Positions 4,972 to 61,804 of a stretch of DNA of 64,000 nucleotides are shown in pieces; within the stretch, counting starts at the first letter, position 1, and each line of letters starts with the position of its first letter. Location of the stretch: positions 32,001 through 96,000 of the forward strand of contig JBHLNZ010000003.1 of assembly GCA_048941015.1 (NCBI GenBank). The letters run 5' to 3'. This stretch comes from Promethearchaeota archaeon (GTDB taxonomy: Archaea; Asgardarchaeota; Lokiarchaeia; Sigyniarchaeales; SOKP01). The notes beneath the pieces are model-generated. The model was not told the origin of the DNA and made no database searches. It worked only from the letters and a program-made list of their open reading frames with translations. A program made the position numbers and the translations under genes.

Positions 4972-5316
4972 TTAAATCTTTTTATTAATTATTAAATCTT
5001 TCCATCTTTTTATAACTTTAATAGTACCTGAAGTTTTTATTGGAGAAAATATTACCCGCTTTCCAGATATCTCTTGTATCAAAGTTAAGGAAGATATTAT
5101 AATTTCTTTAGTTTTATTTGAGCATCTTATTATACCATAATTCTTTATTAAATCTAATTCTAATAACCATAACCCTGCTTTATTTGCTCCTTTTAATCCA
5201 AAATATCTCCATATTGATGTCCAAATTGATTTTAAAATTTCATTTCGCTCTAATTTGTCCTTTTCTTCTTTGATAATTATAAAAAGTATATATCTACTAC
5301 GTTCTAATTTTCCTAT
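4972..5316 (-). CDS. rnp2: RNase P protein component 2 (Pop5/Rpp14 family), non-canonical ATA/ATT start; absent from the ORF track
   Basis: Translated by hand: IGKLERSRYILF...IWRYFGLKGANKAGLWL...GIIRC...IKTSGTIK, the Pop5 motifs; directly after rnp3; SD GAGGGGA; no in-frame ATG/GTG/TTG back to the stop at 5353-5355. Confidence 0.9.
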   Translation of the reverse strand: MGKLERSRYILFIIIKEEKDKLERNEILKSIWTSIWRYFGLKGANKAGLWLLELDLIKNYGIIRCSNKTKEIIISSLTLIQEISGKRVIFSPIKTSGTIKVIKRWKDLIINKKI

Positions 5317-5318
5317 AA

Positions 5319-6041
5319 TTAATCCCCTCTCTCTATAATTCGGACCCCTGTCTCAATTGAATTTTTATCTAGACGTGAATTTACTTTATCTAACAGTTTC
5401 AACACGTTGTCAGAGAATCCTTGCTTTGCTCTGTTTAACGACATCCCTAATAAAGTATTACAAATGCTAATTAGAGCCCTTGGATTACGTATATCAAAGG
5501 GATCATCGAAATTTCCACAGATAATATAGTTATCTTTTAATTTTGCGATAAATTGAGTAAAGCGATATAAATTTCTGAAATGCTTTGACTGTATTGCCTT
5601 ATTTTTAACCAAAAGTGGAGCCAATGCAAATTCTATAAAACTTTTATTTTGATTCGCTAAAGAAATCACTCCAGGAGTTATTGTTTTGAGTAATTCTGGT
5701 TCTGAAAAAGAAATCACATCAATTCTAGAATCTTTAGCAGCTTGAAGTTGAATTTCTTTTTCCTGGGTCTCAACCGATAAGATATATGGAAAGGCTTTAA
5801 AACGCTCTAGCTCTTTCTTAAATTCACGTAATGAATTTGGCTTTAAATTAAAACGGTAAAAAATATTTATTGAGGTTGCATTTTCAATTTTGTTCATTAA
5901 ATCATGATCTATTCTTTCGTTACTATTTTCAGGTTCTAAAATTAAATTTTTTATACCTAAAATTTCACAAAATTCAATCTTTTTCTTAATCTCATTGAAG
6001 TTGCTAAAATCTACTCTTAATCTAGACTCAAAATAAGACAA
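5319..6041 (-). CDS. rnp3: RNase P protein component 3 (Rpp30/Rpp1)
   Basis: AAKDSRIDVI, IEF, DPFDIRNPRALIS motifs; adjacent to Pop5. Confidence 0.88.
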   Translation of the reverse strand: MSYFESRLRVDFSNFNEIKKKIEFCEILGIKNLILEPENSNERIDHDLMNKIENATSINIFYRFNLKPNSLREFKKELERFKAFPYILSVETQEKEIQLQAAKDSRIDVISFSEPELLKTITPGVISLANQNKSFIEFALAPLLVKNKAIQSKHFRNLYRFTQFIAKLKDNYIICGNFDDPFDIRNPRALISICNTLLGMSLNRAKQGFSDNVLKLLDKVNSRLDKNSIETGVRIIERGD

Positions 6042-6177
6042 TTAATTTGAAACCTCTGAGATACTTTTAAATCATTAAAACATTAGTTAAAGAATGGTAA
6101 GTATTGTTATAATAATAAAATTTTATTATAAATGAATATTTTGCATGATTAAAGATTCTAACAATTGAGTAGTTTTA

Positions 6178-7467
6178 TTGCCTAAACAAAGAAAGCTTTC
6201 TGAAATCAGGAAAAAGATTAAAAGTGGAACTGCTAATGTAATTACGGTACAAGAATTTATAGATCGTATAGACAGTGGTGAAAAAGTTAAATTTGAAGAT
6301 GTAGATGTAGTAACTACCGCAACGAAAGGATTAATGAGCGGTATAATGGGCGTTTTCTCATTTCGATTGTCGCCTCCAAAGACATTAAGAAAATTTACTG
6401 AAATTACTATAAATGGAATTCCATCATTTCCCGGACCATGCCCGAATGAATATCTCGGTATTGCTGATTTAATAGTGTATGGTACCGCACAAAGTAGAAC
6501 AAGGGAGAATTATTGTGGTGGTTCTCTTTTTAGGGAGTTGGTCGAAGGGAAGACCGTAGAGATAATAGCAAAAAGTAGTGAGGGTGAAAGAGTTGAAATG
6601 TCTTTAACCTTAGAAGAAATGCAATTTGCTAAACTCATGGGAACCCGTCAAGCGATAAAGAATTATAACGCAATGATCAACTGTGAAACTTATAAAGTAG
6701 ATACTATATTTTCTTGTCTCCCGTTTCAACCGAATAAAACTGAAATCACCTTTTCTGGGTGTGGTGCTTTGAATCCTTTTGAAAATGATCCAGATTTTCT
6801 CTCATATGGTGTTGGTACACCTATCTTAGTTAATGGAAGTATTGGTTATCTTATGGGCCCAGGAACTCGAAATTATATTGAAAAGCCTAATATGATGACT
6901 ATTGCTCCAATGCTGAACATGCAACCAAGATTTATGGGAGCTTTTAAGACTTCATACGGTTTAGAGCCAATTTGTAGTATTGCTGTACCTATTCCAATAT
7001 TAAATGAAAAAATTTTTAATAACATTATCAAATCTGATAAAGATGTGAAATTAACTATTCTAAGTCTTGTTGGAAGAGAAAAGGTTGGTGAAATTACTTA
7101 TGGAGATGTTTGGGACAATAATTTCCTATTAAAATTTGATCCTGAGGCATGTAAAAATTGTGAACAATGTAAAGTAATAGATTTTTGCCCAACAAATGCT
7201 TTTATTGTTAAAAAGGGCTTAGTTTCAGCAATAGATAGAGCTCGTTGTTTCAATTGCGGTACCTGCATTAAATTATGTCCTGATGCTTTCAAATTAAATT
7301 TAAAATCAGTTAAATTTGAAGGCAAAGATGTTCCAATTGTACTTAGACAATCAGATAGGTATGGTGCAATCATTTTAGCAGAAGAATTAAAATCTCAAAT
7401 TCTTAAAGGAGAATTTCCAATAAGAAAGCCTACGGGAAAATTAGATTTCGCTGAGTATATAAAATAA
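6178..7467 (+). CDS. DUF39/HcyBio-family sulfurtransferase with C-terminal 2[4Fe-4S] ferredoxin (methanogenesis marker 16-like)
   Basis: DVDVVTTAT, GPCPNEYLG, SGCGALNP; CxxCxxC...CP and CxxCxxCxxxCP motifs. Confidence 0.85.
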   Translation: MPKQRKLSEIRKKIKSGTANVITVQEFIDRIDSGEKVKFEDVDVVTTATKGLMSGIMGVFSFRLSPPKTLRKFTEITINGIPSFPGPCPNEYLGIADLIVYGTAQSRTRENYCGGSLFRELVEGKTVEIIAKSSEGERVEMSLTLEEMQFAKLMGTRQAIKNYNAMINCETYKVDTIFSCLPFQPNKTEITFSGCGALNPFENDPDFLSYGVGTPILVNGSIGYLMGPGTRNYIEKPNMMTIAPMLNMQPRFMGAFKTSYGLEPICSIAVPIPILNEKIFNNIIKSDKDVKLTILSLVGREKVGEITYGDVWDNNFLLKFDPEACKNCEQCKVIDFCPTNAFIVKKGLVSAIDRARCFNCGTCIKLCPDAFKLNLKSVKFEGKDVPIVLRQSDRYGAIILAEELKSQILKGEFPIRKPTGKLDFAEYIK

Positions 7468-7590
7468 ATTGATTATTGATACTTATAGAACACTTAGATT
7501 TTGTTTAGGATTGTTCTCTTTTTATTTAGATATAAATGTAAAAAATCTTTTTATAATAAAATTTAACTTTCATTATTAATACTCGTTTAT

Positions 7591-9327
7591 ATGTCAAAAC
7601 AAGTTAGCAATGGCGGAGATTTATTAGTCAAATGCCTTATAAATGAAGGAATTACCAAAATGTTTGGAATTGTTGGCGGAGAACTAACCCGAATTTACGA
7701 TGCTATTGAACGATGGGGGAGAGAAGAGGGCATAGATACTGTAATGGTTCGACATGAACAAGCGGGAGGTCATATGGCAGACGCTTGGGCTAGAACAACA
7801 GGAAAAATTGGAGTTTGCCTTGGCACTGCGGGACCAGGTGTTTCTCATCTTATTCCTGCCGTAGCAGCAGCAAATGCAGACTCAATTCCAATGCTAGTTA
7901 TAGGAGCACAAATTGCACGTATGTTTGATGATTCAGGAATCCTGCAGGGTGGATTGGATCAGATGAGTTTAATGAGACCAATAACAAAATTACAAATTTC
8001 TGTTGAGGAACCTTATGAAATTCCATTTGCTGTACAAAGATGTGTTAAAACAGCAATCTCAGGAAGAAAAGGCCCTGTTTTTCTAGAATTAAGAGAAACT
8101 GCTTTAGTTAGGACTGCTACGGAGGAAGATATGAATAAGATATTGAAACCAGAAAAATATAGACCTAATAACAGACCTTATGGAGATCATGAGATGATAA
8201 ATAATGCATTAAAAATTCTAAAAAATGCTAAGAGGCCCATCATAATTGCTGGAGGAGGAACGATCGCAGCGGAAGCTTCAGAGGATTTAATTAAGCTTTC
8301 TGAAGCCTATAAGATTCCTGCTTTAACTACAGTTATGGGTATTGGTGCGATTAGTTACAATCACAATACATATGCCGGGTCCTATCCCTTATCTAGTACT
8401 TACCGTAGAGCTGCTTCAGAAGCAGATGTTGTTGTAGCGATTGGTTGTAAATGGGATTACACTACAATATATGGGACAGCTCCGGTATGGAATCAAGAGC
8501 AGAAAATTGTACAAATTGATATAGATCCTAAAGAAATTGGAAAAAATAGACCCGTTGAAGTTGGCATTATTGGAGATGCGAAGGCAGTTATAAATCAATT
8601 TCTTAATAGTATGGAAAAAAATCTACCTAAAGAAAAAATAACTGAATGGTCTGAATGGAATGAATATTTACAGGCAGCTCGTGAGAATGATCGAACCATT
8701 ATCCAAAACCTTAAACAATCAAACAAAATTCCAATGAAACCTGAGAGACTTATTGTTGAAATATTAGAATTTATTCCACCCGAGACTCAGTTAGTTATTG
8801 ATGGGGGTGATATTGCTCTTTTTGCTTATGGTCTTATTTCAAATTATCATAGATATCCTAGGAGCACTTTCACTTCTATAGGAATGGGACATTTGGGTGT
8901 AGGAGTTTGTTATGCTATTGCAGCAAAATTAGCTAATCCTGATAAACCTGTAGTATGTATCAATGGGGATGGTAGTTTCTTATTCAATGTCCAGGAATTA
9001 GAAACAGCAGTAAGACTTAATTTACCCATAATTATTATAATTGGAAATAATTGCGCATGGGGGATGCTAAAAACATATCAAAAAAACAACCTAAAAAGAC
9101 GTTATTGTGATGTAGATCTTCCTTCCATTAATTACGCTGAGTTAGCTAAAGGTTTCGGCTGTTATGGTGAGAAAGTGGAGAAGCCAGAAGATATTAAACC
9201 TGCATTAAAAAGAGCAATTGCGTCAAAGAAACCTGCTGTGATTGATGTTAGCATTGCCTTCGGATCACCACCGGCCGGAAAATTTCTAGGATTATATAAA
9301 AAGAATAAGGGTTTATTCGGGAACTAA
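7591..9327 (+). CDS. Thiamine pyrophosphate-dependent enzyme (acetolactate synthase / 2-hydroxyacyl-CoA lyase-like)
   Basis: VRHEQAGGHMADAWAR, GPG and GDGSF...NN TPP motifs. Confidence 0.92.
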   Translation: MSKQVSNGGDLLVKCLINEGITKMFGIVGGELTRIYDAIERWGREEGIDTVMVRHEQAGGHMADAWARTTGKIGVCLGTAGPGVSHLIPAVAAANADSIPMLVIGAQIARMFDDSGILQGGLDQMSLMRPITKLQISVEEPYEIPFAVQRCVKTAISGRKGPVFLELRETALVRTATEEDMNKILKPEKYRPNNRPYGDHEMINNALKILKNAKRPIIIAGGGTIAAEASEDLIKLSEAYKIPALTTVMGIGAISYNHNTYAGSYPLSSTYRRAASEADVVVAIGCKWDYTTIYGTAPVWNQEQKIVQIDIDPKEIGKNRPVEVGIIGDAKAVINQFLNSMEKNLPKEKITEWSEWNEYLQAARENDRTIIQNLKQSNKIPMKPERLIVEILEFIPPETQLVIDGGDIALFAYGLISNYHRYPRSTFTSIGMGHLGVGVCYAIAAKLANPDKPVVCINGDGSFLFNVQELETAVRLNLPIIIIIGNNCAWGMLKTYQKNNLKRRYCDVDLPSINYAELAKGFGCYGEKVEKPEDIKPALKRAIASKKPAVIDVSIAFGSPPAGKFLGLYKKNKGLFGN

Positions 9328-9347
9328 AAATTGTAAGGTGGGAAATT

Positions 9348-10151
9348 GTGTCAAAAGAACAATTTTTAAAAGGAAAAGTTGCTCTGATAACGGGAGCTGG
9401 AAGTGGTTTTGGTAGGGAAATGGCAAAAAAATTCGCCAGAACAGGAGCTGATTTAGTGTTAAACGACATTAATATGTTAGGATTAGAGGAAACTCAGGAA
9501 ATTATATTAAAAGATTGTGATGTTGATATCCTTTTAGCAAAAGCAGACATTTCAAATTCAAATGAAGTAAAACAAATGGTAGATGATGTTTTTAAGAAGT
9601 TTGATAACATTTTTCTATTGGTTAACAATGCAGGTATCGATAGTGGATTGTATACTTCATTAAAATCTAAAGAAGAATCTTATGATAAAGTTATGGCGGT
9701 AAATGTTAAGGGAGCTTGGAATGTAACAAAAGCATTTTTTAGAAGGATGAAAAGACAAAAACAATTTAAGCCTATTGTCGGAAAAATTATTAATATAGCA
9801 TCATGTGCAGGAACCGAAAATGGTTTAAATCCTTATTTTGGAATATACAGTGCAAGTAAAGCTGCGCTTATTGCTTTCACTAAATTATGGGCTCTTGAAT
9901 TAGGATCTAGCAATATTACAGTAAATGCAATTTCACCGGGGATTTTCTTGACTCCTATATATAAAAATGATCCAAAGCTAATAAGAATGCTTATGGAAAC
10001 AAGAGGAATAAAATTGCCCATAGATAGAATAGGAGAAGCTAAAGATGTAGCTGATGTTGCTTTATTTTTAGCATCACCCGCAGCGGATTATATTACAGGA
10101 CAAAATATCATTTTAGATGGAGGAATGACCTTAAGTATAAATAAATTATAG
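9348..10151 (+). CDS. SDR family NAD(P)-dependent oxidoreductase
   Basis: TGAGSGFG, NNAG, YSASK, NAISPG. Confidence 0.95.
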   Translation: MSKEQFLKGKVALITGAGSGFGREMAKKFARTGADLVLNDINMLGLEETQEIILKDCDVDILLAKADISNSNEVKQMVDDVFKKFDNIFLLVNNAGIDSGLYTSLKSKEESYDKVMAVNVKGAWNVTKAFFRRMKRQKQFKPIVGKIINIASCAGTENGLNPYFGIYSASKAALIAFTKLWALELGSSNITVNAISPGIFLTPIYKNDPKLIRMLMETRGIKLPIDRIGEAKDVADVALFLASPAADYITGQNIILDGGMTLSINKL

Positions 10152-10619
10152 ACTAATCTTTAAGTAATACTAATTCTAACTTATAATTTAATTTCAAGAA
10201 ATTATTTCGGAGTTTAAAAACATATTTTCATATTTATTATTGTTTTTTTTAGATTTGTATAATCAAGAGAAAGTTGAGAAGGCGTTTGTTTCATTAAAAC
10301 TCCATTCAATAAATCTAATGTGGTTTTTTATAGATCAATACTTCTCAATTATTCTCTAACTTTAAGAGATCTATTAATTTATGTCAGAGTTCTTAACTTA
10401 TCATGTATATAAATCTTTTTGATCATAATTAACATTTAACGAATTTAAGATTGATTAACAATATAATTTAATATCCTAACTTAATATAAAATTAGAATTG
10501 TGTCCTATTATCCTTAGTCTTCTTATAGGATTATACAAAAATTAAAATACCAAATTTAATTATCATTTTTATAATTTATCGCAAAACTGAAAATAATATA
10601 GATAAGTGGCTTTAATAAC

Positions 10620-11447: not shown

Positions 11448-11448
11448 T

Positions 11449-11868: not shown

Positions 11869-11911
11869 AAAATGAAAAATTATAATTAATTTTCAAAAAG
11901 TTGATTAGACA

Positions 11912-12622: not shown

Positions 12623-12644
12623 GAGTGGATATAAAGAAAAAATC

Positions 12645-14693: not shown

Positions 14694-14754
14694 TTTATTA
14701 TAAGAATATGATATATAATCATTTTTATAATAAATAATATTTATAACAATAACG

Positions 14755-15171: not shown

Positions 15172-15172
15172 T

Positions 15173-15685: not shown

Positions 15686-15746
15686 AATTCTGTAGATTAA
15701 ATTATTTTTTAATTGAAAAAATTTTTGAAAAAATCTTATTCTTTCT

Positions 15747-16924: not shown

Positions 16925-18337
16925 TTAAAAATTACTCTCATCGATTTTTGGCATTTCTGGAGAATTTAACGCTATTCTAATCTCTTCATCAGGTAATTCA
17001 TAATCTTCTAAATTCCCTGCCATGAACTCCTTATATGCAAGTAAATCAAAATAACCATGTCCACTAAAATTGAACACTATAACCTTCTTTTCGTTGTTTT
17101 CATGAGCTATTAACGCTTGATCCATTACTTCTTTTATTGCATGACATGTTTCAGGAGCAGGAAGTATTCCTTCTGCTTTAGCAAATCTTATTCCTGCTTC
17201 AATAACTTCAGTTTGGTAATGCATATTAGAAGAAATGATTTTATTGTTATGTAAAATCGAAACCAATGGAGCAATTCCGTGATATCTCAATCCTCCTGCA
17301 TGAATCGGATTTGGGATAAATGAATGCCCTAATGTATGCATTTTTAAAATAGGTGCTTGTTTCGCAGAATCACCATAGTCCCAACGGTAATTCCCTTTAC
17401 ATACACTTGGACAAGCACGAGGTTCAACACCTATTATTTCAACATCGGGGAGAATTCCGTGTATCTTTTCTCTAACAAAAGGAAGTGCAAATCCCATAAA
17501 GTTAGAACCGCCCCCCATACAACCGATTAAAATATCAGGTTCCTCTATCCCTGCTTTTTTTAATTGAATCTTAACTTCTTGCCCAACAATCGTTTGATGT
17601 AGACAAACAAAGTTAACCACGCTTCCTAAAGAATACCGTGCTTTATCACTCCTTAAACTATGCTCTATAGCTTCAGATATAGCAATTCCTAAACTACCGG
17701 GATGATCTGGATTGTTATTGTAAAATAATCTTCCCGATGATGTAAATTCTGATGGACTAGGGAGAACTTCAGCATTATAAGATTGCATTAAAATTTTCCT
17801 GCCCGGTTTTTGAAGAAAACTTGCTCTTACCATATATACTGTGCATTTAATATCAAACAAGTTGCATCCGAAAGACAATCCAGATCCCCATTGCCCCGCT
17901 CCCGTTTCAGTAACCAACTCTTCAATTCCATCTTTTTTAGCATAATAAGCTTGAGCTAATGCAGTATTTGGTTTATGTGATCCGGTTGGAGAAACAGATT
18001 CATTTTTGTAAAAAATTTTAACTTTATCATTAAAAATCCCGAGTTCTTTTTCTAAACCAATAGCACGATGGAGCGGTGTAGGTCTATAAGATCTAGCATA
18101 AATTTCACGTAATTCTGCAGGAATAGGTATAATTGGGTCTTGAGAGACTTCTTGAAGGACACATTCTTTCGGAAAAATTGAGAAAGCCATTTCTGGGGGA
18201 GCAGGTTTGCCATCCATTGGATTTATTAATGGTGTCATAGGAGTTGGTAAATCAGGTAAAATATTTACCCATTCTTTTGGAACTTCACTTGGATCCAATA
18301 AAATTCTTGTATTGAAAATATCTACTATTTTAATCAC
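16925..18337 (-). CDS. trpB2: Tryptophan synthase beta, TrpB2 type (true start possibly ATA 18328)
   Basis: YRPTPL, SPTGSHKPN, TETGAGQWG, GGGSN, IHAGGLRYHG, NFSGHG. Confidence 0.95.
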   Translation of the reverse strand: MIKIVDIFNTRILLDPSEVPKEWVNILPDLPTPMTPLINPMDGKPAPPEMAFSIFPKECVLQEVSQDPIIPIPAELREIYARSYRPTPLHRAIGLEKELGIFNDKVKIFYKNESVSPTGSHKPNTALAQAYYAKKDGIEELVTETGAGQWGSGLSFGCNLFDIKCTVYMVRASFLQKPGRKILMQSYNAEVLPSPSEFTSSGRLFYNNNPDHPGSLGIAISEAIEHSLRSDKARYSLGSVVNFVCLHQTIVGQEVKIQLKKAGIEEPDILIGCMGGGSNFMGFALPFVREKIHGILPDVEIIGVEPRACPSVCKGNYRWDYGDSAKQAPILKMHTLGHSFIPNPIHAGGLRYHGIAPLVSILHNNKIISSNMHYQTEVIEAGIRFAKAEGILPAPETCHAIKEVMDQALIAHENNEKKVIVFNFSGHGYFDLLAYKEFMAGNLEDYELPDEEIRIALNSPEMPKIDESNF

Positions 18338-18434
18338 CTTTTAAAATTGTTTTTTTTTAAATTAAATGTGTATCATTCTTATATTGGAGTTCAATATAAT
18401 CAATGCCCATTTGGCACTCAGAAAGATATCTCTT

Positions 18435-24461: not shown

Positions 24462-24463
24462 AA

Positions 24464-36377: not shown

Positions 36378-39300
36378 TTGACACACATAAAGAAAATTTC
36401 TATGACGGGATTTAAATCATTTGGAGATCGGACAGTTACAATTAGACTTTCAAGCGGATTTACTTGTATTGTAGGACCAAATGGAGCTGGAAAGTCTAAC
36501 ATCATTGATGCCTTAACTTTTGCTTTAGGAAGATTAAGTAAAAAAACCATGCGAGCGAAATCATTAGAGGATCTTATTTTTGCAGGATCAAGAGGAAAGA
36601 ATCCTTCCAATAGAGCTACTGTAACCTTGTATTTCGATAATTCTGATAAAGAATTTCCAGGGGATTCTGACACTTTTGAAATATCACGAACAATTAAAAG
36701 AGGGGGAGGCGGAGGATATAAAATGAACGGGGAAAAAACAACTAGACAGCAAATTCTAAATGCTTTGGCTGCAGCAAATATAGATCCTGATGGTAGTAAT
36801 CAATTTGTACTTCAAGGAAAAATAGTTGAATTAACCCACATGAATCAAGAAGAAAGAAGAACTTTTATTGAGGATCTTATCGGGTTACAGAAGTATGATG
36901 AAATGAAGGATGCAACAATGAAAGAATTAGAAAAAGCAGAACGCGATTTGGGACAGTTTGAAGCGATTTTCAAGGAGGTCTCATCACAATTGAAAAAAGT
37001 TGAAAAAGAGAAAAATGATGCTATTGCTTGGAAAGAACTTGATGAAAAAATTAAACATTATAACGCCCAATTAATCGCACTAAAAATATCTAAATTAAGA
37101 AACGAAGAACAAGAAATAGAGGTTAAGATAGAAGAGTCAAATAAAGTAATCGAAGAATTAGAAGAAAGAATAACAAGACAAGAAGACGTATTAAAACAAG
37201 AATCACTTATCATGGAAAATATTCAAAAGACTATTACGGAAAAGGAAAAAGAGAGAGAAATCATAAATGAAAATATAACGCAATATAAAACTCAACTCTC
37301 TTCAAACCAGACAACCTTAAAATTAGCTCAAAAATCAATTGACAAATTAAGTCTAGAAATTAAGAACTTAGAAACTATGCTAATGGAGCTTGAGGACGGT
37401 CAGACATTTGAATTATTAATCGATGAAAAAAAAAGTGAAATCTCAAAGACCGAAAGTCTTATAGAAGATTCTAAAAAGGAAATAGAATTAAGACAACAAA
37501 ATCAATCTGAACTCGATCTTAAAATTAAAAATAATGAGGATATGAAATCCTCTCATAAGGCAGAAATTTCGAATATTAAACAAAATATCTCTTCAAATAA
37601 AGCCCAAATAAAATTACTAAGGGATTCAATAAAGAAAAATGAAGAAAAAAGGAAAAAGTTAGAAATAGATTTAAATAAATTAAAGGGTGAAGCAGAAAGC
37701 ATTGATGACGCAATTGTCAATACGAAGAAGGAAGAGAACGAAGCTAGAAGTAAAATTGACGATTTAAAATCTAAAATTTCCGAAGAGAACAAGAAACAAA
37801 AGGATTTAGAAAATAAAATTAAAGATTTTCAAGATCAAAAATATCAATTGAATACCAAACTTGTTGATTTACAATCTTCTTTATCTTCCTTAAATACTGA
37901 AATTAAAATGAATAGGGATAGAATTGATAAGCTAAATTCTAAGAAAGGATTAATAGAAAATAAAATTAAAGAATTGAGTAAAGGAAAAGATACTGAAGAA
38001 GTCATTAAAGACCTATTGAAAGAGAAAGACAAGATAATTAAAGATCTGAATGAGTTAAAGAAAGAATCCAAAGAAGAAGATTCAAAATACAGGCAAAATG
38101 AACAAAATTTAGATCTATTAATCATGAAACAAGATTCTATTCAATCAGAAATAATTGACAATAAATCTAAAATTGAAAATATAAAGACTAAATTAAAATT
38201 ATCTAAAAGAGAACTAACAAACTTAGAAAGAGAAAAACGAGATTTGGAATTAAAAGTTAATACTTTAAAATCTAATATTAAGAAAGATGAAAATGAAATC
38301 CAGAATTTAGATAGTAAAAAAGATAATATTTTAAGACGTTTAGATGATCTCTCTTCAGAAAAAGATAATTTAATATCGAAGATTGAAAATACTGAGAAGG
38401 AATATGAAAGGAATACTGAAGATGTTACTGGAATCCTCCAAATTTTAAACATGCTAACTCAAAATATTAATATCTCTGTTGAATCGATTAAAAGTAATAT
38501 TCAGCAATCAAATGCAGAAGCAATTGAAACTTCTGCTGAAGATTTTAGAAAATTTGTGTTAGATATAGTAGATATAATGAAATCTGTAGAAGATGTAAGT
38601 GAAGAAGGAGAAAAATCATCAGAAATGTCCGAAATGCTAAATTCAATATTACAAACATTAAAACTTTTTACCGAAAATGTTGATTCAACAATCGGTCAAC
38701 TAATAGGTAAGGTAAAAGAATCTGCTGATGTTGAGATACAACAATCAACCGCAACTTTTGATAGTTTTGTTCAAGATTTAATGGAAATACTGGAAAATGT
38801 ATATCTTTCTCTAAGAAAGTTAACCATGTCTAAAAGTCAAGAATTATATCAACAATTAGAAGAAATTTCGGATAATATTGGTTCTCAAACAAATGATTTA
38901 AATAATCTTGAGAAAAGTCTTACGAAACTGGACACTGAAAAAAAGCATAACACCGAAAGTCTTAATTTAAATTCAAAAAGGCTTGAAATAGTTAATACAA
39001 GAGTTATTGAATTAAAAAATAATATTGAAAAATTTGATAAAGAAATCGATCAAAGAAATAAAATTATTGATGAAAAGCTAAAACAAAATTTTGAGAAGGA
39101 GATTCTAGACTTAAAAAGGAATAAAGAGCTATATTGGGAAAATGTATCTAAAATCCAAGAAGAGATAGATCTTAAACAAAAGAATCTCGATGAATTACAA
39201 GAAAAACATCAAGAATTAAGAGGTATTCAAAATTTATTTGAAAATGTATTAGAGATTGAAAATAATATCCAAGATTTAAATAGCTCGATAGAAGAGAAGA

Positions 39301-40826
39301 AAAATTCAATATTATCTGCAGAAGAAATTATAAAAAATCATCATATAGAGCAAAATGCATTAGATTCTAAAATTGAAAAGTTAATATCTGAAAAGGATAA
39401 TTTCTGGGAAAGTACCGAAAAAATTCAAGCTGAAATTGATGACTACAATAAAAATTTAGAAGAGATTATGGATCGAATGAGAGCACTTGAAAATATTATG
39501 ATGATTATTAATTCTATTGAAGATTTAGTCAAAGAAAATGAGGATGCCAATAATAATATTGATTTATGTGACAAAAATATACAAACTTACAACTCCCAAG
39601 TAGAAGAAATCCAAAAGAAAGTTGATGAAGTTCAACAAATCATTGATGCACTAAGAGAAGAAAAAAATAATGAAATTGAAGAACAAAAGAAATCACAAAA
39701 AGATTTAAATAAATTAAACAAAGACTTACAAAAGATTCAAGGAAAATTAAATGAACTTAACCAAAATAAAGAAAGGCAACAAAAGATTCTTTCATTAAAT
39801 GAAGATATTAAAGATACAGAAAAACAAATTGAATCGATTTTAGCAGATATAGAAAAAATAGAAAAAGCATTATCTACGGAAAACGATAAGAAACAACTAA
39901 AACAAGATGAAATAGATAAGTTTATCCAAGAAAAAGATGAATCATGGAAAAAACAGAAAACTTATCAAAAACAACTAAACGATTTAAAATCTGATCTCTC
40001 TATGGAAAATTCAAAATTGAATAATTATGAGTCTAAAAAAATTATTACTACAGACCAGATTGAAACCTTATATCAAAGATCAAAAGATTATGGGGCTTTA
40101 CCCCCTGTTACAGATGAATTATCTGAATCAGGATTACAATCTGATATCAATGAAGCTTCTAAAAAGAAAGTTGCTCTTGAACCCGTAAACCTAAAAGCAA
40201 TAGAACAATATGACAATGTTAAAGAAAGATTCGATGAAATAGATATGAGAAGACAGACAATTCAGAGAGAAAGGAAGTCTATATTGGATGCTATTGATAA
40301 AATTGAGTTAGAAAAAACTAGAACTTTTATGAAAGCGTATCATGAAATAAACAGAGAATTTAGCAGAATCTTCCAAAAATTAAGTCCTGGAGGATCAGCA
40401 AAAATGATTCTTGACAGACCAGACAAACCATTTGAGGGGGGTGTTAGTATTGAAGCAAGACCGAGAGGAAAGAAGATTTCAAGTTTAGAGATTTTAAGTG
40501 GTGGAGAAAAAACATTAGTAGCGTTATCTTTTATTTTTGCAGTTCAAGAGTTTTATCCTGCACCTTTTTATATTATGGATGAAATAGATGCAGCCCTTGA
40601 CGGTCCAAATGTTCATCGAACATCAATGGTTATAAAAGAATTCGCAGAACAGGCTCAATTCTTAGTTATTAGTCATCGAGAGGAGAATATTGTTAATGCC
40701 GATCGTATATATGGGGTTTCAATGCAACAAAGCGGTATTACTGATATATTTAGTGTAGATTTAGAAGAAGAGGCTAAGAGACTTCTTGAACTGCCAGATG
40801 TACCAACAAATATAGAAGAAAGCTAA
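36378..40826 (+). CDS. smc: SMC chromosome segregation ATPase (atypical centre, long arms)
   Basis: GFKSF, GPNGAGKSN, LQG, PVNLKAI, LSGGEK, MDEIDAALD, ISH; upstream of scpAB. Confidence 0.95.
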   Translation: MTHIKKISMTGFKSFGDRTVTIRLSSGFTCIVGPNGAGKSNIIDALTFALGRLSKKTMRAKSLEDLIFAGSRGKNPSNRATVTLYFDNSDKEFPGDSDTFEISRTIKRGGGGGYKMNGEKTTRQQILNALAAANIDPDGSNQFVLQGKIVELTHMNQEERRTFIEDLIGLQKYDEMKDATMKELEKAERDLGQFEAIFKEVSSQLKKVEKEKNDAIAWKELDEKIKHYNAQLIALKISKLRNEEQEIEVKIEESNKVIEELEERITRQEDVLKQESLIMENIQKTITEKEKEREIINENITQYKTQLSSNQTTLKLAQKSIDKLSLEIKNLETMLMELEDGQTFELLIDEKKSEISKTESLIEDSKKEIELRQQNQSELDLKIKNNEDMKSSHKAEISNIKQNISSNKAQIKLLRDSIKKNEEKRKKLEIDLNKLKGEAESIDDAIVNTKKEENEARSKIDDLKSKISEENKKQKDLENKIKDFQDQKYQLNTKLVDLQSSLSSLNTEIKMNRDRIDKLNSKKGLIENKIKELSKGKDTEEVIKDLLKEKDKIIKDLNELKKESKEEDSKYRQNEQNLDLLIMKQDSIQSEIIDNKSKIENIKTKLKLSKRELTNLEREKRDLELKVNTLKSNIKKDENEIQNLDSKKDNILRRLDDLSSEKDNLISKIENTEKEYERNTEDVTGILQILNMLTQNINISVESIKSNIQQSNAEAIETSAEDFRKFVLDIVDIMKSVEDVSEEGEKSSEMSEMLNSILQTLKLFTENVDSTIGQLIGKVKESADVEIQQSTATFDSFVQDLMEILENVYLSLRKLTMSKSQELYQQLEEISDNIGSQTNDLNNLEKSLTKLDTEKKHNTESLNLNSKRLEIVNTRVIELKNNIEKFDKEIDQRNKIIDEKLKQNFEKEILDLKRNKELYWENVSKIQEEIDLKQKNLDELQEKHQELRGIQNLFENVLEIENNIQDLNSSIEEKKNSILSAEEIIKNHHIEQNALDSKIEKLISEKDNFWESTEKIQAEIDDYNKNLEEIMDRMRALENIMMIINSIEDLVKENEDANNNIDLCDKNIQTYNSQVEEIQKKVDEVQQIIDALREEKNNEIEEQKKSQKDLNKLNKDLQKIQGKLNELNQNKERQQKILSLNEDIKDTEKQIESILADIEKIEKALSTENDKKQLKQDEIDKFIQEKDESWKKQKTYQKQLNDLKSDLSMENSKLNNYESKKIITTDQIETLYQRSKDYGALPPVTDELSESGLQSDINEASKKKVALEPVNLKAIEQYDNVKERFDEIDMRRQTIQRERKSILDAIDKIELEKTRTFMKAYHEINREFSRIFQKLSPGGSAKMILDRPDKPFEGGVSIEARPRGKKISSLEILSGGEKTLVALSFIFAVQEFYPAPFYIMDEIDAALDGPNVHRTSMVIKEFAEQAQFLVISHREENIVNADRIYGVSMQQSGITDIFSVDLEEEAKRLLELPDVPTNIEES

Positions 40827-40850
40827 ATTATTAGTAAGAGAAGGTGTTTA

Positions 40851-41864
40851 ATAATCCCTGAAAATGAAGAAAATAAAATAAAGTATAATTTTAAAGAGTG
40901 GACTGTTAAACAATTAAGAGAGTTTGCTGGAAAGAATAATATAACTATCCCCTCTAAATCTAAAAAAGTAGAAATAATAAAATTATTAAAGGAAATAACT
41001 TCTCACCCCGAATTTGTTGATAGAACTAAATCTGAAGATAAAGAAGATGAACAGGAAGAAGAACTTGAAATTGAACTGATTGCTGGAGAAGAAGAACCAG
41101 AGCTTATCAAAAGAGAAAAAATAGAATTAAAGTTTTGGCAAAAACCACCTTATTCTAGTTTATTAGATTCTGAATTAGCCAAACAATCAAATGTCGCATT
41201 TTATGATTTAGCTTCATTAGTTGATAAATTTTTTGATAATATGCTTCATGAAGATATCATTAATTACAAAATTTCTGGTATTGCGCTTAAAACTTCGGCA
41301 TCATTACACCATTATAAAATCTCAAGTATTATTAAAGAAGAAGAAGAAATACAAAAAAAACAAGAACTTGAGGAATTTAGAAGAAAACATGGCCGTACAA
41401 TTCCAAAAACTTTACCTCAACCAATTTCTCCTAAAATGATGATATCTACAAAAGAAGAATTATTTGAAGCAATGAGATCAGCAATAATCGAAACAATGCA
41501 ACAAAAAGAAAAATTAAGAAGGCGACGTTTACGTAGAGAGCAATTAAAGCAAGAAAGAATTCAAATGCAGTCAAAAGCACAATTACCTAAAGAACTTTTA
41601 AAACATATTAGTGGAAAAGAACAAACGATTGAAGAATTGCTTGAATCATGGTATAATCGCATCAAAGCAAGTATTAACCTTGATAATGAAGATACTAGCC
41701 TTTTTAGTATGGTCAATGTCATAAAAACCGAAGAAGAAAGCGATATTGGCAGAAAATTTGCGTTTGTAAGATTGTTTTTAGCATTAATGTTTTTGTCAAC
41801 GGGGAATAAATTAGTCTTATCTCAAGATGAGGATTTCAAAGATTTAATGATTAGTGTAAAATAA
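40851..41864 (+). CDS. scpA: Kleisin ScpA (about 337 aa) with N-terminal HeH/SAP-like module; non-canonical ATA/ATC start
   Basis: Frame open from 40827 to the track's ATG at 41241; the N-kleisin motif (PPY.SLLD...YDLASLVDKF...ISGIAL..SA.L...K) spans that ATG; C-terminal FLALMFL...L.Q.E.F.D; AAGGTG SD. Confidence 0.88.
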   Translation: MIPENEENKIKYNFKEWTVKQLREFAGKNNITIPSKSKKVEIIKLLKEITSHPEFVDRTKSEDKEDEQEEELEIELIAGEEEPELIKREKIELKFWQKPPYSSLLDSELAKQSNVAFYDLASLVDKFFDNMLHEDIINYKISGIALKTSASLHHYKISSIIKEEEEIQKKQELEEFRRKHGRTIPKTLPQPISPKMMISTKEELFEAMRSAIIETMQQKEKLRRRRLRREQLKQERIQMQSKAQLPKELLKHISGKEQTIEELLESWYNRIKASINLDNEDTSLFSMVNVIKTEEESDIGRKFAFVRLFLALMFLSTGNKLVLSQDEDFKDLMISVK

Positions 41865-41895: not shown

Positions 41896-42660
41896 ATGAG
41901 TGAAGAGCATGAAAGTTTGAACGAAAATGAAAATTCAAATTCTGAGGGAGATTCGAATGAGAAACTTGAAATAATATCTAAAGAGAAATTGAATATAAAC
42001 AACCAATCTCATGATAACCTTCAAATCGACAATGAACAACAAGTTGATGAAACAATACGAGAACAGGAGAATATTTCTTTAGATGAAATTATAAAAGAAG
42101 GTGAAATTTCTCAAAAGGATGATGAAGAAGCTGTAGATGTACAATTAAAAGATTTACAAAAAAATTTAATAGAAGGAGCTCTTTATGCTGCTGGTAGACC
42201 TTTAGATATTGAAGAGTTATCAATAAAATTAGAGATTTCTAAAAAAATAGTAGAAGAGTTAGTCATGGAAGTAGCTTATGATTATTTGGAACGATCTAGT
42301 GCTTTAATTATAGCACAAATCGGAGATAAGTTCCAAATGCAAATTAGACCGGAATATACTGAAAAAGTATCAAAATTTGCAAAAGGAGGTGCGATTGCAG
42401 AACGATATTTACGAACTTTAACAATAATCGCTTTAAAGCAACCTATATTAAAATCTACTGTAATTAAATTAAGAGGAACCGGTGCTTATGAACATATTAA
42501 ATATTTATTAGATAATGATCTAATCTCTGCAGTAAAAAAAGGTAGGACTCATGAATTATCAACAACAGATAAATATGCAGAGATGTTTGGATTGCCAAAA
42601 AATAAGGAAGAATTACGAAAGGCAATGATACTACAGCTAGGATTAGAAAGTCAAGAATAA
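41896..42660 (+). CDS. scpB: SMC-Scp complex subunit ScpB with acidic N-terminal extension
   Basis: IEGALYAAGRPL, LRTL.IIA.KQPI, RG, TT.KY.E.FGL. Confidence 0.95.
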   Translation: MSEEHESLNENENSNSEGDSNEKLEIISKEKLNINNQSHDNLQIDNEQQVDETIREQENISLDEIIKEGEISQKDDEEAVDVQLKDLQKNLIEGALYAAGRPLDIEELSIKLEISKKIVEELVMEVAYDYLERSSALIIAQIGDKFQMQIRPEYTEKVSKFAKGGAIAERYLRTLTIIALKQPILKSTVIKLRGTGAYEHIKYLLDNDLISAVKKGRTHELSTTDKYAEMFGLPKNKEELRKAMILQLGLESQE

Positions 42661-50786: not shown

Positions 50787-50804
50787 GAGGTTATTAAATA
50801 GTAG

Positions 50805-53306: not shown

Positions 53307-53311
53307 TTAAT

Positions 53312-55678: not shown

Positions 55679-55791
55679 ATATATTAGAAAACCCTCTAAT
55701 TATGTTTTCATTTTGATAATTTACATTATTTTTATATTTTACATGATCTTCTATTAATTAAGTTCAATTAAAAAATCAAGATTTTAATGAA

Positions 55792-57075: not shown

Positions 57076-57308
57076 ATTGCAATATTATATTGATTTTTAT
57101 TACTTTTAGAAAACATTTAAATAACAAATCAATTTCTTTTCAAAATGAAGGAATATTTACATTTTAAGATGTTGAGATGATTGAATAAATATTGGGATAT
57201 AAATCCTATATCTTTACCATATCTAATAGCTTAACCCATAAATATACATGTATTTATTTATAAATTTGTAATTAAAATATTGAACAAATGTGAAAGTGAG
57301 AAGTAAAA

Positions 57309-60300
57309 ATGACCTCTGAAGATGATGAAGGAAGGATAACCCAAGGTACAATTGCTCAATTCATGCGAAAAAGAACACAGTTAGTTGGATTTGAATTTGG
57401 GTATTGGAAGCACGTACAATATTGTGCCGAGTTCTTAGATAACGCTTTAGATGCTATAGAGTCTTTTCAATGGAACGAAATAGTAAAGGATGATTCAAGT
57501 ATAAAATTTTCTCTAGATCAAGATCTAGCTTTAGAACATTTATCTATTCTTCAAGAAGCAAGAGAAGATGAGGAAATACAACCATTAAATCACGAAGCGA
57601 AATTAACATTAATGAAGGAACTTCATCTAAAATCTGGTGAATCTATAGCTGAAGAAGCAGAAAAATTTGAAGATAAAGAAGAAGAATCGGGAGAAGTAAT
57701 AGACAAAAGTGAATTAGAAGTTGAAGAGGAAGTTAGACTAATTATCGAAGATATGAATGAAATTATCAAACCTGTTGAGGTAATTATTGATATTGAGCCA
57801 ATTGTAATAATTAGATTAAGAGAATCTGAAGCTTCTTCGTTTTTAACTTCTGATATCTCTCAAAAAAATGTAATGAGTTATACTTTCGAAATATTTGATA
57901 ATGGTCTTGGCATGGGAAAAGGAGATTTGCGTAAATTTGGTAAGTACTTAGCATCTTCAAAAAGTGTCGAATTAAAACAAACTCGAGGAAGTCAAGGATT
58001 TGGAGCTCCAAGTGCATTCAGTGATGCTCAAAATACTACAGGAAAACCCATTGTTGCAGTTTCAAAGTCTGCAGAAAGTATTTATGCTACTGTCTCTGAA
58101 TTTTTTACCACATCTAAAAATGAAAAAAGATACCTTGTTCACCCCTCTGAGGTTGATTGCCCATTTATACATGGAACATATATCAAATTACACTATTTAA
58201 ATGTAAAATACATTCGAGGATATTTAGAAACCTATATTAAAGAGACCGCTTTAATGAATCCGCATATTACTATTATTTATATTGATCCTTCCGGTGAGGA
58301 ATGGATTTATCGAAGATTAGTGTCATCTTTCCCTAAAGAACCGAAATATGCTAAACCTCACCCATCTTCCACAAATATAGGAGATTTACAAGATCTTTTA
58401 ACGAAATCAAATAACTTAACAGTTTCAGCTTTTCTGCAAGACAATTTTGTAAGAGTTAGCTCTAAAACAGCAAAAGAAATAATAAATATCGCGGAAAGAG
58501 ATTTACAAGATGAATTAAATCTTCTAATTTTAAAAAACGGATATATCACCAAAATTGATAATAAATCAGATTCAATTTATTATTTAAATTATGAAAAACG
58601 GATTTTTGGACGTTCTGAAAAAGAAAGAGATAAATTAGTTATATATGAATTAACATCTGAAGATATAAAACAGAAATATTTAGAGTTGATATCTAATTAT
58701 AAGAATCTTGACAAAGAGCTGGAAAAAATCAATAAGGAAATAAAAAAACAAAATAATTTAATTGAAAAAGCTGACACGAAGAAGGACACACACAAAATAG
58801 AAAAAAATATTGAAAAGCTATTAAAAGATTTTGAAGTTATTGTAAGAAAAAAAGAAAAAATTAAAGGTGATCTTGATAAAATTATCCAAACTTCTAAAGC
58901 AAGTTTGCAAGAACTTAAAAAGTTTAAAGAAAGGAATGAATTTGAAGATTTAATTAATCAGGTGCAATTATCCAAAGCTAAACCAAAAGAATTATCAAAT
59001 TTACAGTTTAATTCGCTTTTTAATGCATTTAAATCAATAAAATATATGGCCCCTCCAACAGATACGGCGATTCCCGTAGGTGATAGTGTATTAGAAAACA
59101 CATTAATTAAGGAAATAGGCTTAAAAGTTTCAGAAAATTTGGATGAATTTGATGCTCCAATCGAAAGATTAAAAAATTTATCTAATGAATTGGAAAAATT
59201 AAAGAAAAAAGACCTTATTAAAGAAGACCCTTCTATAAAAGAAATTGATATTAAAAAAGAAGATATTATTGATTATAGTAAAAAGATTTTAGTAGGCATA
59301 AATTTTGAAGAGGAAAATACATCGCCTGATGATTTTAAACAATCTATAAAAGATATTGTCCAAACTTCTAAAGAAATATTAAAAGAAAGTTATCAAGATG
59401 TATTCGATTTTTTTTTAGAAACTTATACTAAAGAGGATGATTTTGTTGCCGCTGAGACAAGACCTCCAACAAGCGGGAAAGGGCTTGCCTATATTGTTGA
59501 AGCGGCTTTAGCTTATTGTAATGATCCTAAAAAACTAGAAACTCCAAAACGCTCAAGAGATGTCTTATCAAGGTTTGTGAACAGAACTCCTAAATTGAGA
59601 GATAGTGCAGATTGCGCTATCACAAAAGCTGCTCAATCAGTAAATTGGAAGAATTATAAACTTGATACCTATGATAATAATCTTCCAAAAGGACCTATTA
59701 AATTATTAGTAAATGTTTCAGGTCCATATGTCCATTTAATGTTTAAATCGCAATCTAAAAATGCATTAGCAGATGATGAGGAATTAATTAAGGAGATTAA
59801 ATATTGTCTTGAGGCTATAGGAAGAAGATTAAGAGTATATCTTAATAGAAAAGCCACTATTCATAAAAGCCAGAAAAGAGCTAGTTTAATTGAACAATAT
59901 ATCCCTATTTTTGTAGAAAGTGTATATAATATTGCTTCAAAAGGAAAAACTAAATACAAAGAAAAAATCTCAAAAGAAGATTTAGAAATTTTAATGAAAG
60001 ATGCGATTGGAAAAAAAGCTGTTAAAGTTTCCCCACAAAAAGTTGAAATAACTAAACCAGAAATAAAAAGGAAGGAAATTGAAAAAATAACACCAAAAAA
60101 AGTTGCGATTGAATGGGAAAAAGCGCCTCTTGAACAAACTCCTCTTATTAAATCTACTAAAGTAGAAGAACAAGCATTATCTGTAAAAACGCTTAATAAT
60201 TGGACTATTAAAGAATTAAGAGAGTACTGTGTTGATAACCATATCGATATCCCTTCAAAAATCAAAAAACCTGAAATCATTAAAACCATACAAGAATATT

Positions 60301-60611
60301 ATACTAAGAAAAAGGAAATTAAAATCCCTATTAAACCTATTAAACAAAGAGAAGAACCACCTAAAATTAAACCAGAAATCGCTCCAGTGACCCCCACATT
60401 AACTCAAACAACCCTTCCAGTTATAACAACAGAAAAAATTCTAGCAGTACTATCTCAAGATTGGCAAAATATAACCCATTTAATTTTTAAATTAAAAATA
60501 AAGGATATGATGGATGCAAGATACCTTCAGAATAAATTAAAAGATCTTGTTAGAAAAGAAAAAATCTTAGTAGAAATAAAAAAAGGTAAAAAACATTGGA
60601 AATTAAGGTGA
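57309..60611 (+). CDS. top6B: DNA topoisomerase VI subunit B, expanded (1100 aa)
   Basis: EFLDNALDA, DNGLGM, QTRGSQGFG, NPH, KPHP, RFVNRTP, NWKNY, FKSQSK. Confidence 0.93.
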   Translation: MTSEDDEGRITQGTIAQFMRKRTQLVGFEFGYWKHVQYCAEFLDNALDAIESFQWNEIVKDDSSIKFSLDQDLALEHLSILQEAREDEEIQPLNHEAKLTLMKELHLKSGESIAEEAEKFEDKEEESGEVIDKSELEVEEEVRLIIEDMNEIIKPVEVIIDIEPIVIIRLRESEASSFLTSDISQKNVMSYTFEIFDNGLGMGKGDLRKFGKYLASSKSVELKQTRGSQGFGAPSAFSDAQNTTGKPIVAVSKSAESIYATVSEFFTTSKNEKRYLVHPSEVDCPFIHGTYIKLHYLNVKYIRGYLETYIKETALMNPHITIIYIDPSGEEWIYRRLVSSFPKEPKYAKPHPSSTNIGDLQDLLTKSNNLTVSAFLQDNFVRVSSKTAKEIINIAERDLQDELNLLILKNGYITKIDNKSDSIYYLNYEKRIFGRSEKERDKLVIYELTSEDIKQKYLELISNYKNLDKELEKINKEIKKQNNLIEKADTKKDTHKIEKNIEKLLKDFEVIVRKKEKIKGDLDKIIQTSKASLQELKKFKERNEFEDLINQVQLSKAKPKELSNLQFNSLFNAFKSIKYMAPPTDTAIPVGDSVLENTLIKEIGLKVSENLDEFDAPIERLKNLSNELEKLKKKDLIKEDPSIKEIDIKKEDIIDYSKKILVGINFEEENTSPDDFKQSIKDIVQTSKEILKESYQDVFDFFLETYTKEDDFVAAETRPPTSGKGLAYIVEAALAYCNDPKKLETPKRSRDVLSRFVNRTPKLRDSADCAITKAAQSVNWKNYKLDTYDNNLPKGPIKLLVNVSGPYVHLMFKSQSKNALADDEELIKEIKYCLEAIGRRLRVYLNRKATIHKSQKRASLIEQYIPIFVESVYNIASKGKTKYKEKISKEDLEILMKDAIGKKAVKVSPQKVEITKPEIKRKEIEKITPKKVAIEWEKAPLEQTPLIKSTKVEEQALSVKTLNNWTIKELREYCVDNHIDIPSKIKKPEIIKTIQEYYTKKKEIKIPIKPIKQREEPPKIKPEIAPVTPTLTQTTLPVITTEKILAVLSQDWQNITHLIFKLKIKDMMDARYLQNKLKDLVRKEKILVEIKKGKKHWKLR

Positions 60612-60616
60612 AAAAT

Positions 60617-61804
60617 ATGCCTAATCAAGGAAATAAAAAATTATATGATTTAAAAGCTGCCCGAAATTTATTTGAAAATTATTTAAATGAAGGTCAGAAA
60701 TCTCATAGATTTAAACAAGTTGAAGATACCGTAAAAATAGATGATTTGAATAGAAAACAAGCTTTAAATAGGATTTATACGTTGATAGATAATATTATCG
60801 AACAAATTTATCAAACGGGAAGACCGTCCATTCAACTGCCCTCAAGAGCTTCTTCGAATATTATATGGGATGAGGAAAATGATCTTTTATTATTAGGAAA
60901 ACAAATTATGGAAAAGCAATTTCATACTCTTACTAGTGTCGCAGATATTACAAGATTAATGAGAGTACTTGAAGTAGTATCTGAATTATTATCAGAAGAT
61001 TTACATGCTACAAAAAGAGAAATATTTTATACTGACGTTAATTTATTTGGAGAGCAAAAGAATAGTGATAAAAGTATTGAAGATATTGCCACTATGCTCT
61101 ATACTTCAAGGAATTCCACCCATATAGTTGCTGCACCAAGAGGTTCTTGTGTTGGAAGACTAAGAATAAGAGATAGAACTGATATTATCGATCTTGAAGC
61201 CCAAGGAAGTGGAGGATGGACAATATCTCCATTTTTAGATCAAATTGAAATACTTGAGTCAGATGCAGAATTTATTTTGGTTATTGAAAAAAATGCTGCA
61301 ATGATGAGGCTTGCTGAAGATAGATTTTGGCGTAAGTATCCTTGTATTTTAATAACTGCTCAGGGTGTTGGAAATGTAGCGACTCGGATGTTCTTAAAAC
61401 GCTTAAATAAAGAATTGAATCTGCCAACTTTTACTTTAGTAGATAGTGACCCATATGGTCATTATATACATTCTGTCTATTTGAGGGGTTCTAAAAGATT
61501 GAGTTATGAATCTCCTTTTCTTGCCACTCCCAACATAAAACTTCTAGGAGTTTTAACTAGAGACTTAGATAAATATAAGATACCAAAAGTAGCTAGAATC
61601 AGGATGAATAAACAAGATGAAAAACGAACCAAAGATCTACTGAATGAAGATTTTGTCAAAAAAAATAAAGAATGGGAGAAAGACTTAGCATTAGCTTTGA
61701 AATTGAAGGAGAAGGCTGAAATCCAAGCATTTGCTACTCATGGTTTTAAGTTTCTAACTGATGAATATTTACCAGAAAAACTAACTACAGGTGATTGGAT
61801 ATAA
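60617..61804 (+). CDS. top6A: DNA topoisomerase VI subunit A (Spo11 family)
   Basis: TKREIFY, IEK, DSDPYG, KAEIQA; start placed at the ATG after AGGTGA. Confidence 0.96.
   Translation: MPNQGNKKLYDLKAARNLFENYLNEGQKSHRFKQVEDTVKIDDLNRKQALNRIYTLIDNIIEQIYQTGRPSIQLPSRASSNIIWDEENDLLLLGKQIMEKQFHTLTSVADITRLMRVLEVVSELLSEDLHATKREIFYTDVNLFGEQKNSDKSIEDIATMLYTSRNSTHIVAAPRGSCVGRLRIRDRTDIIDLEAQGSGGWTISPFLDQIEILESDAEFILVIEKNAAMMRLAEDRFWRKYPCILITAQGVGNVATRMFLKRLNKELNLPTFTLVDSDPYGHYIHSVYLRGSKRLSYESPFLATPNIKLLGVLTRDLDKYKIPKVARIRMNKQDEKRTKDLLNEDFVKKNKEWEKDLALALKLKEKAEIQAFATHGFKFLTDEYLPEKLTTGDWI

Follow-up and report, generated by a model that had tools for sequence, protein, structure and literature searches.

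Probable AUA, AUU and AUC start codons behind Shine–Dalgarno motifs in a family of Loki-type Asgard archaea

The stretch of DNA analysed here (the window; 64 000 nt, G000:C64:32001-96000) belongs to a 3.59-Mb draft genome of 144 contigs (29 % GC, completeness 95 %), whose relatives' protein matches are named 'Promethearchaeota / Candidatus Lokiarchaeota archaeon' metagenome-assembled genomes (MAGs), identifying the organism as a Loki-type Asgard archaeon. Four of its genes, namely those for the RNase P subunit Pop5/Rpp14, the TrpB-like pyridoxal phosphate enzyme TrpB2, a kleisin in the position of scpA and a conserved ORF following top6A, were flagged in an earlier note on this DNA as starting at ATA behind a Shine–Dalgarno (SD) motif instead of at a canonical start codon (ATG, GTG or TTG). 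Our analysis indicates that near-cognate start codons are very probably genuine at Pop5 ATA 5316, trpB2 ATA 18328, kleisin ATC 40854 (less likely ATA 40851) and the post-top6A ORF ATA 61801, and that about 80–110 genes start in this way genome-wide.

The 3′ end of the 16S rRNA was located and reads ...GGATCACCTCCT (also written ...GGAUCACCUCCU), from which the full SD is AGGAGGTGATCC. Spacing (S) was measured to the start codon from the base that aligns with the A of GGTGA, and ATG starts, used for calibration, peak at S=5–7. Domains of the window proteins were assigned by Pfam and NCBIfam profile matches, and synteny with five same-genus genomes was used to align the N-termini of ~45 window genes; canonical starts are conserved in most of these, with the four flagged genes as the exceptions. 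ATA, ATT and ATC are referred to collectively as ATH (AUH).

The Pop5 frame is open from stop to stop at 4972–5352 on the minus strand, and its earliest in-frame ATG, GTG or TTG is a TTG 78 codons downstream of ATA 5316, bearing out the claim that no canonical codon precedes the conserved motif. The product matches PF01900 (1.6e-20, 73.6 bits, gathering cut-off 23, profile positions 1–101 of 104), with profile position 1 aligning at residue 8 of the ATA-started protein. The start context is GAGGGGA-TTAATT-ATA (S=6), and the stop codon of Rpp30 (TAA, 5321–5319) sits within the spacer between SD and ATA, 2 nt before the latter. Across 30 genomes from seven genera of the same family, the start column (the codon ahead of V/G-K-x-E-R-x-R-Y) is occupied by ATG, TTG or GTG in roughly two thirds, by ATA in ~8 and by ATC in 3, always with a purine-rich SD ~6 nt ahead. 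The closest relative (87 % identity) has ATC where the source genome has ATA, while G008 reads ATA-ATA immediately after a TAA stop. The Rpp30 start column holds TTG in four genomes and ATG in one.

In trpB2, the context AGGTGA-TTAAA-ATA (S=5) is present as described, with the same 5-nt spacing as AGGTGA-AAAAT-ATG of top6A. The protein matches NF009057 (NF009057/TIGR01415; 9e-190, 630.9 bits, cut-off 366) over residues 6–450, equivalent to profile positions 3–440, and its ATA aligns with ATG in G002, G008 and G017 (IVDIFNTRILL here vs MTDFYNTRILL). As in-frame canonical alternatives, there are a GTG that forms part of the SD, three codons upstream, and a TTG at +10. There is no upstream gene on its strand. 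The ORF after top6A likewise displays the reported context, AGGTGA-TTGGAT-ATA (S=6), and its ATA shares bases with the top6A stop as ATAA. Its start column reads ATA here and in G024, ATT in G003, TTG in G002 and G008 and ATG in G017; an alternative in-frame TTG, at 61795, follows GGTGA without any spacer. No match was returned for this ORF in Pfam or NCBIfam.

The kleisin gene sits between those for SMC and ScpB, and JGI calls its orthologs 'Rec8/ScpA/Scc1 (kleisin family)', although Pfam and NCBIfam searches gave no ScpA family match. Its stop-to-stop frame (40827–41864) is conserved, with residues 3–345 displaying ~74 % identity across ~18 same-genus genomes, and 130 codons separate ATA 40851 from the earliest canonical codon, an ATG. 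The earlier note was therefore right about the missing canonical codon, but probably not about the start itself: ATA 40851, in the context GAAGGTG-TTTA-ATA, lies at S=3, and alignment makes ATC 40854 the more likely start because it lies at S=6, occupies the column in which orthologs have ATG and corresponds to the beginning of full-length public orthologs (MPEE...). The codon ahead of the conserved P-E is ATC, ATT or ATG in the orthologs, and in two of them a TAA stop directly precedes that ATC. Most of the ~18 have no canonical codon for 22–138 codons. The smc TAA stop is in frame with the scpA ORF, eight codons upstream of ATA 40851, such that one read-through event would join SMC and the kleisin in one protein. 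This shared frame was found in the source genome only, the relatives having the two genes in different frames, and looks accidental; a read-through fusion was rejected on these grounds. The kleisin N-terminus (window 40851–41000) contains an HeH/SAP/Rho-N-like helix-hairpin module of ~45 aa, which is matched by PF12949 under the cut-off (E = 7e-4); orthologs carry precomputed PF10281, PF07498 and PF12949 assignments, and the module has further protein matches within the genome, among them Top6B residues near window 60189–60320.

Translation from the next canonical codon downstream, with the upstream open frame untranslated, is the choice that gene callers make. Public calls of the scpA orthologs begin at many different internal TTG, GTG or ATG codons (LREFAGKNN..., LLEDVVAHPDF..., LKFWQKPP...; 245–319 aa), as the earlier note had anticipated in stating that callers truncate genes, and trpB2 has its TTG at +10. 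Such a start would, however, cost Pop5 70 of its 104 Pfam positions and the kleisin 130 conserved residues, the HeH-like domain among them, while a chance open stretch in an AT-rich frame averages only ~12 codons. Moreover, the points of truncation vary between orthologs despite conserved upstream sequence, and scpA orthologs with ATG at the true start column are 329–338 aa long. We therefore regard downstream initiation as very improbable and the near-cognate codons as the likely starts (Table 1).

Table 1. Features of the window that bear on the proposed near-cognate starts
Feature	Coordinates	Strand	Remarks
Pop5/Rpp14 (RNase P subunit) gene	4972..5316	-	Proposed start ATA 5316-5314; stop 4974-4972
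SD-like GAGGGGA, 6 nt upstream of Pop5 ATA	5323..5329	-	Same purine-rich motif and 6-nt spacing in orthologs
Rpp30 (RNase P p30) gene, directly upstream of Pop5	5319..6041	-	PF01876; canonical TTG start 6041
trpB2, TrpB-like PLP (pyridoxal phosphate) enzyme	16925..18328	-	Proposed start ATA 18328-18326
SD AGGTGA, 5 nt upstream of trpB2 ATA	18334..18339	-	Holds the sole upstream in-frame GTG
SMC gene	36378..40826	+	TTG start; TAA stop 40824-40826; TIGR02168/TIGR02169
SD AGGTG before scpA-position gene	40842..40846	+	AGGTG conserved in same-genus orthologs
Kleisin (ScpA-position) gene	40854..41864	+	Most likely start ATC 40854, S=6
ScpB gene	41896..42660	+	PF04079; ATG start here
Top6B gene	57309..60611	+	PF09239; ATG start here
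Top6A gene	60617..61804	+	PF21180, PF04406; AGGTGA-AAAAT-ATG start; stop TAA 61802-61804
SD AGGTGA within top6A 3′ end, 6 nt upstream of ATA 61801	61789..61794	+
Conserved 172-aa ORF after top6A, unknown function	61801..62319	+	Proposed start ATA 61801

For the genome-wide tally, a set of 3001 non-overlapping stop-to-stop ORFs of at least 100 codons was used. An initial count of codons behind the SD relative to gene interiors was confounded by A-rich spacers, AAA being enriched as well, and was replaced by frame counts and spacing profiles. SD 5-mers were sampled around the beginning of each ORF (at most 22 nt upstream or 45 nt downstream), yielding 898 anchors, 533 of which are explained by an in-frame ATG, GTG or TTG at S=2–13. 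For the remaining anchors, triplets at S=5–7 were counted in frame and in the two other frames, for which a ratio of 1 : 2 is expected. ATT (61 in frame, 20 out of frame) and ATA (42 and 8) were strongly biased towards the reading frame, with counts of 9 and 8 for ATC, 5 and 2 for CTG and 6 and 0 for ACG, and a weak enrichment of GTA (10 and 6); the control codons displayed no such bias (AAA, 21 and 37; AAT, 10 and 37; TTA, 14 and 44). Pooled, ATH occurred 112 times in frame vs 36 times out of frame (18 expected in frame; binomial p = 7e-26), and the ATT and ATA counts also exceed a codon-usage null scaled from the gene-interior tally (~17 ATT, ~11 ATA).

The spacing profiles lend further support to this reading. 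In-frame ATT numbers 16, 32, 17 and 12 at S=4, 5, 6 and 7 (~4–6 elsewhere) and ATA 6, 14, 13 and 15, matching the ATG/TTG/GTG peak, while out-of-frame ATH is depleted there and, in the same genome-wide profile, AAA and AAT have no peak behind SD motifs. A second bump of in-frame ATT was seen at S=13 and 14 behind SDs without a canonical start (16 and 13, vs ~2–8 at S=8–12). Altogether, 110 genes combine an SD with ATH and 503 combine an SD with a canonical start; after background subtraction, ~80–95 ATH genes remain, equivalent to ~3 % of the ORFs and ~15 % of SD-led starts, a lower bound given that only exact SD 5-mers and S=5–7 were counted. Downstream of the ATH starts, a canonical codon follows in frame after a median of 21 codons, a value to be expected within coding sequence, and SD run length does not differ between ATH and canonical starts (mean 5.56 vs 5.52). 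The tally of codons behind GGTGA proposed in the earlier note gives ATG (39), TTG (20), ATA (13), ATT (12), GTG (8), ATC (6) and ACG (4), and so does return ATA, but not ATA alone. The claim of routine SD-led AUA initiation thus holds insofar as the enrichment is specific to frame and spacing; the start class, however, is AUH, with ATT > ATA > ATC plus a few CTG and ACG, and is not ATA-specific.

Could the near-cognate codons be ATG codons altered by sequencing or assembly errors? The genome is a draft in 144 contigs. Nevertheless, these non-canonical codons are repeated, column for column, in dozens of genomes from independent assemblies, and more than 100 sites have both the correct frame and the correct SD spacing. 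As suggested by the ortholog check put forward in the earlier note, relatives carry ATG, GTG or TTG at the ATA column of trpB2, Pop5 and the post-top6A ORF and at the ATC column of scpA. Base-call error is considered excluded because independent assemblies display ATG, GTG, TTG or ATH at these columns, and we assign this explanation a negligible probability.

Alternatively, the genes might be expressed by recoding from the gene upstream, i.e. by stop read-through, frameshifting or termination–reinitiation without a proper start codon. In favour of this, three of the four genes stand close to the one upstream: the Rpp30 stop just precedes the Pop5 ATA, the top6A stop overlaps ATA 61801 as ATAA, and the smc TAA shares its frame with scpA. 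In opposition to this, the smc/scpA frame relation differs among orthologs, trpB2 has no same-strand gene upstream, and an upstream same-strand ORF ends no more than 20 nt away from just 19 % of the 110 ATH starts, as opposed to 36 % of the SD-led canonical starts, on which basis termination–reinitiation coupling was rejected as a general mechanism. The SD spacing signature points instead to de novo positioning of the ribosome. Recoding is accordingly judged very unlikely, leaving initiation at the near-cognate codons as the favoured reading.

Near-cognate starts are also encountered in relatives at window genes that have canonical starts here. Five relatives have ATT at the ATG column of Top6B, three of them without an upstream canonical codon; in G017 and G024, a GTG lies in frame three or four codons before the ATT. 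In G002 and G008, ScpB has CTG 6 nt behind GGTGA, vs ATG here. Top6B itself is 1100 aa, approximately twice the usual archaeal length, with the transducer domain at residues 709–856. Elsewhere in the window, a 432-aa gene begins GTN-GTN-TTA-TTG (window 6169–6180), with GTG at the first codon in three relatives; either a GUH codon or the TTG at codon 4 may serve as its start.

The habit appears to be strongly raised in the source family and not to be a simple effect of AT-richness. In G032, a closed genome of similar GC content from the sister family of which 1.2 Mb was sampled, ATH was found 18 times in frame vs 15 times out of frame, and the ATH excess per canonical SD start was 0.054, compared with 0.11–0.18 in four random 1.2-Mb samples of the source genome. 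Likewise, the Pop5 start is canonical in 12/12 genomes of the sister family, with ATA or ATC in 0/12 vs about 11/30 in its own family. It is because of these two contrasts that we consider the habit family-raised; in the sister family, it is weak or absent. Samples of 400 kb from other genomes were too small to be usable, and G033 (53 % GC) was uninformative.

Several observations weigh against the interpretation of these codons as near-cognate starts. The starts themselves are predicted from the DNA sequence, and the N-terminal residue may be Met or Ile. Two of the four genes retain in-frame canonical codons, namely the GTG inside the SD of trpB2 and the TTG at zero spacing before the post-top6A ORF, both of which are unlikely starts. 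Some orthologs have neither a canonical codon nor ATH at the start column. Pop5 of G002 (G002:C84) reads GGGTGA-AGA-GTA-GTC-GTA-AAA, GTC occupying the conserved start column, and before its RYILF motif no ATG, GTG, TTG, ATH or CTG was found; four scpA orthologs (L002, L004, L005 and L011) have GTT at S=6 and ATC at S=3. A simple 'AUH only' rule is therefore incomplete, and GUH starts, or starts at shorter spacing, are possible in these genomes. An estimate of 250–300 ORFs without a canonical start (8–10 %), derived from the tail of the distances between stop and first canonical codon, was dropped: this tail also takes in short, doubtful ORFs and has much the same weight in the sister-family genome, so the figure is not specific to the habit. 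Finally, only ~25 tRNAs were detected in the source genome, leaving room for a second initiator.

This last point bears on the possibility of a dedicated decoding device, such as a second initiator tRNA with another anticodon, an agmatidine-type modification of C34 of the initiator tRNA or mRNA editing. The tRNA set is incompletely detected (25 genes by ARAGORN and 23 by Rfam RF00005, neither including one with a CAU anticodon), and many tRNAs of the source genome probably carry unusual introns. A pattern search located the initiator tRNA gene around G000:C10:11,612-11,725; it has A1:U72, a GGG/CCC anticodon stem (three G-C pairs) and a CAU anticodon, with an intron of roughly 33 nt in the T loop. 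A tRNA-Sec (TCA) is also present in the source genome. No second initiator-like anticodon arm was found by pattern search within this incomplete tRNA census, the sole arm found (GGGCUCAUAACCC) having CAU. As the third bases U, A and C are all used, alongside CTG and ACG, general tolerance of near-cognate codons fits better than one new anticodon, and a dedicated device appears very improbable.

We therefore favour near-cognate initiation with the ordinary machinery, which might proceed as follows. The SD would pair with the 3′ end of the 16S rRNA and place the small subunit such that AUA, AUU or AUC, 5–7 nt downstream, lies in the P site, where the ordinary initiator tRNA(CAU) would tolerate a mismatch at the third codon position. 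Start-codon stringency would be set low in the source family, perhaps via the gene for aIF1 itself. This gene (aIF1/SUI1; G000:C101:18498-18839, minus strand, outside the window) has no canonical codon before the Cys knuckle in 32/36 family genomes; in these, the frame opens at a TGA or TAA within or right after the conserved AAAGGTTGTGA motif, and an ATT (ATC in one genus) is conserved three codons in. In the source genome, an ATA right after the TGA is not conserved (AAA in most relatives), making the ATT at codon 4 the likely start. The sister family, by contrast, has TTG, ATG or GTG before the Cys knuckle in 10/12 genomes and ATA in the other two, which belong to one genus.

An aIF1 started at AUU or AUC, with feedback on stringency like that of infC, would fit these data by analogy and may account for them, though the relation is a correlation only and no proof. 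Similarly, the fidelity of aIF1/aIF2 may be relaxed, as the earlier note supposed; what the sequences display is a normal tRNAi(CAU) in the source genome and a conserved ATT/ATC start of aIF1 in its family. More broadly, and only tentatively, one Loki-type Asgard family may have a lowered stringency set-point, in which SD-guided ribosomes accept any AUH and sometimes CUG, ACG and GUH, the set-point being held by the AUU/AUC-translated aIF1 as an archaeal counterpart of the IF3 and eIF1 loops; we consider this less likely than not. Were it true, weak starts would add control of gene expression across the whole genome, and a considerable fraction of the Asgard N-termini published to date would be wrong.

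Starts other than AUG, GUG and UUG at such frequency are unusual for a prokaryote. In practical terms, gene callers restricted to ATG, GTG and TTG shorten or miss a few per cent of the source family's genes, among them core genes (RNase P Pop5, the kleisin, TrpB2, aIF1 and, in relatives, Top6B), and wrong N-termini matter in view of the wide use of proteins from these MAGs in structure work and in inference on eukaryote origins. The difference between the source family and its sister family, whose GC contents are similar, and the AUU start of aIF1 make up a natural system for examining how archaeal, eukaryote-like initiation sets its stringency. SD sequences have been described as rare in Lokiarchaea in a review (PMC12993045). 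Full-text literature searches returned no genome-wide description of such starts, the only related statement concerning AtubA of a Kariarchaeaceae (Heimdall-type) MAG, for which a 'rare ATT start codon' was proposed (PMC13394414). As here, the public call of that Asgard gene is N-terminally truncated and a ribosome-binding site fits the upstream ATT; it was, however, a one-gene remark made during cloning and concerns another Asgard class, whereas the present tally is lineage-wide.

Several known systems resemble the starts described here. SD-led near-cognate starts are found in infC and pcnB of E. coli, and alternative initiators are included in NCBI translation table 11. Bacterial initiation at AUU, AUA or AUC is similar in employing a third-base near-cognate codon at normal SD spacing and, presumably, the ordinary initiator tRNA. 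The ATT start of E. faecalis ebpA (PMC4447247) is a further example. Bacterial cases are, however, isolated and usually regulatory, in contrast to the share of genes reported here, and in the source family housekeeping genes use AUH and initiation involves archaeal aIF1, aIF1A and aIF2 rather than IF3. The ATAA at top6A/ORF 61801 and the Rpp30 stop 2 nt before the Pop5 ATA are reminiscent of the stop/start overlaps (ATGA, TAATG) that couple genes in archaeal and bacterial operons, with the differences that the start codon here is ATA and that most ATH starts genome-wide are not overlapped. For the candidate GUH starts (GTC in G002 Pop5 and GTT in scpA of four relatives), Streptomyces sigR offers a precedent, its GTC start being repressed by IF3 (PMC5472188). 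For aIF1, a parallel lies in the AUU autoregulation of infC, which encodes IF3, and in the poor-context autoregulation of eIF1 (Ivanov 2010, cited in PMC6237735): in each, the gene of a factor that rejects poor starts has a poor start itself. Relative to E. coli infC, an AUU on aIF1 is less distinctive, AUH starts being common in the source family, and it is by analogy with these systems that feedback may be envisaged here.

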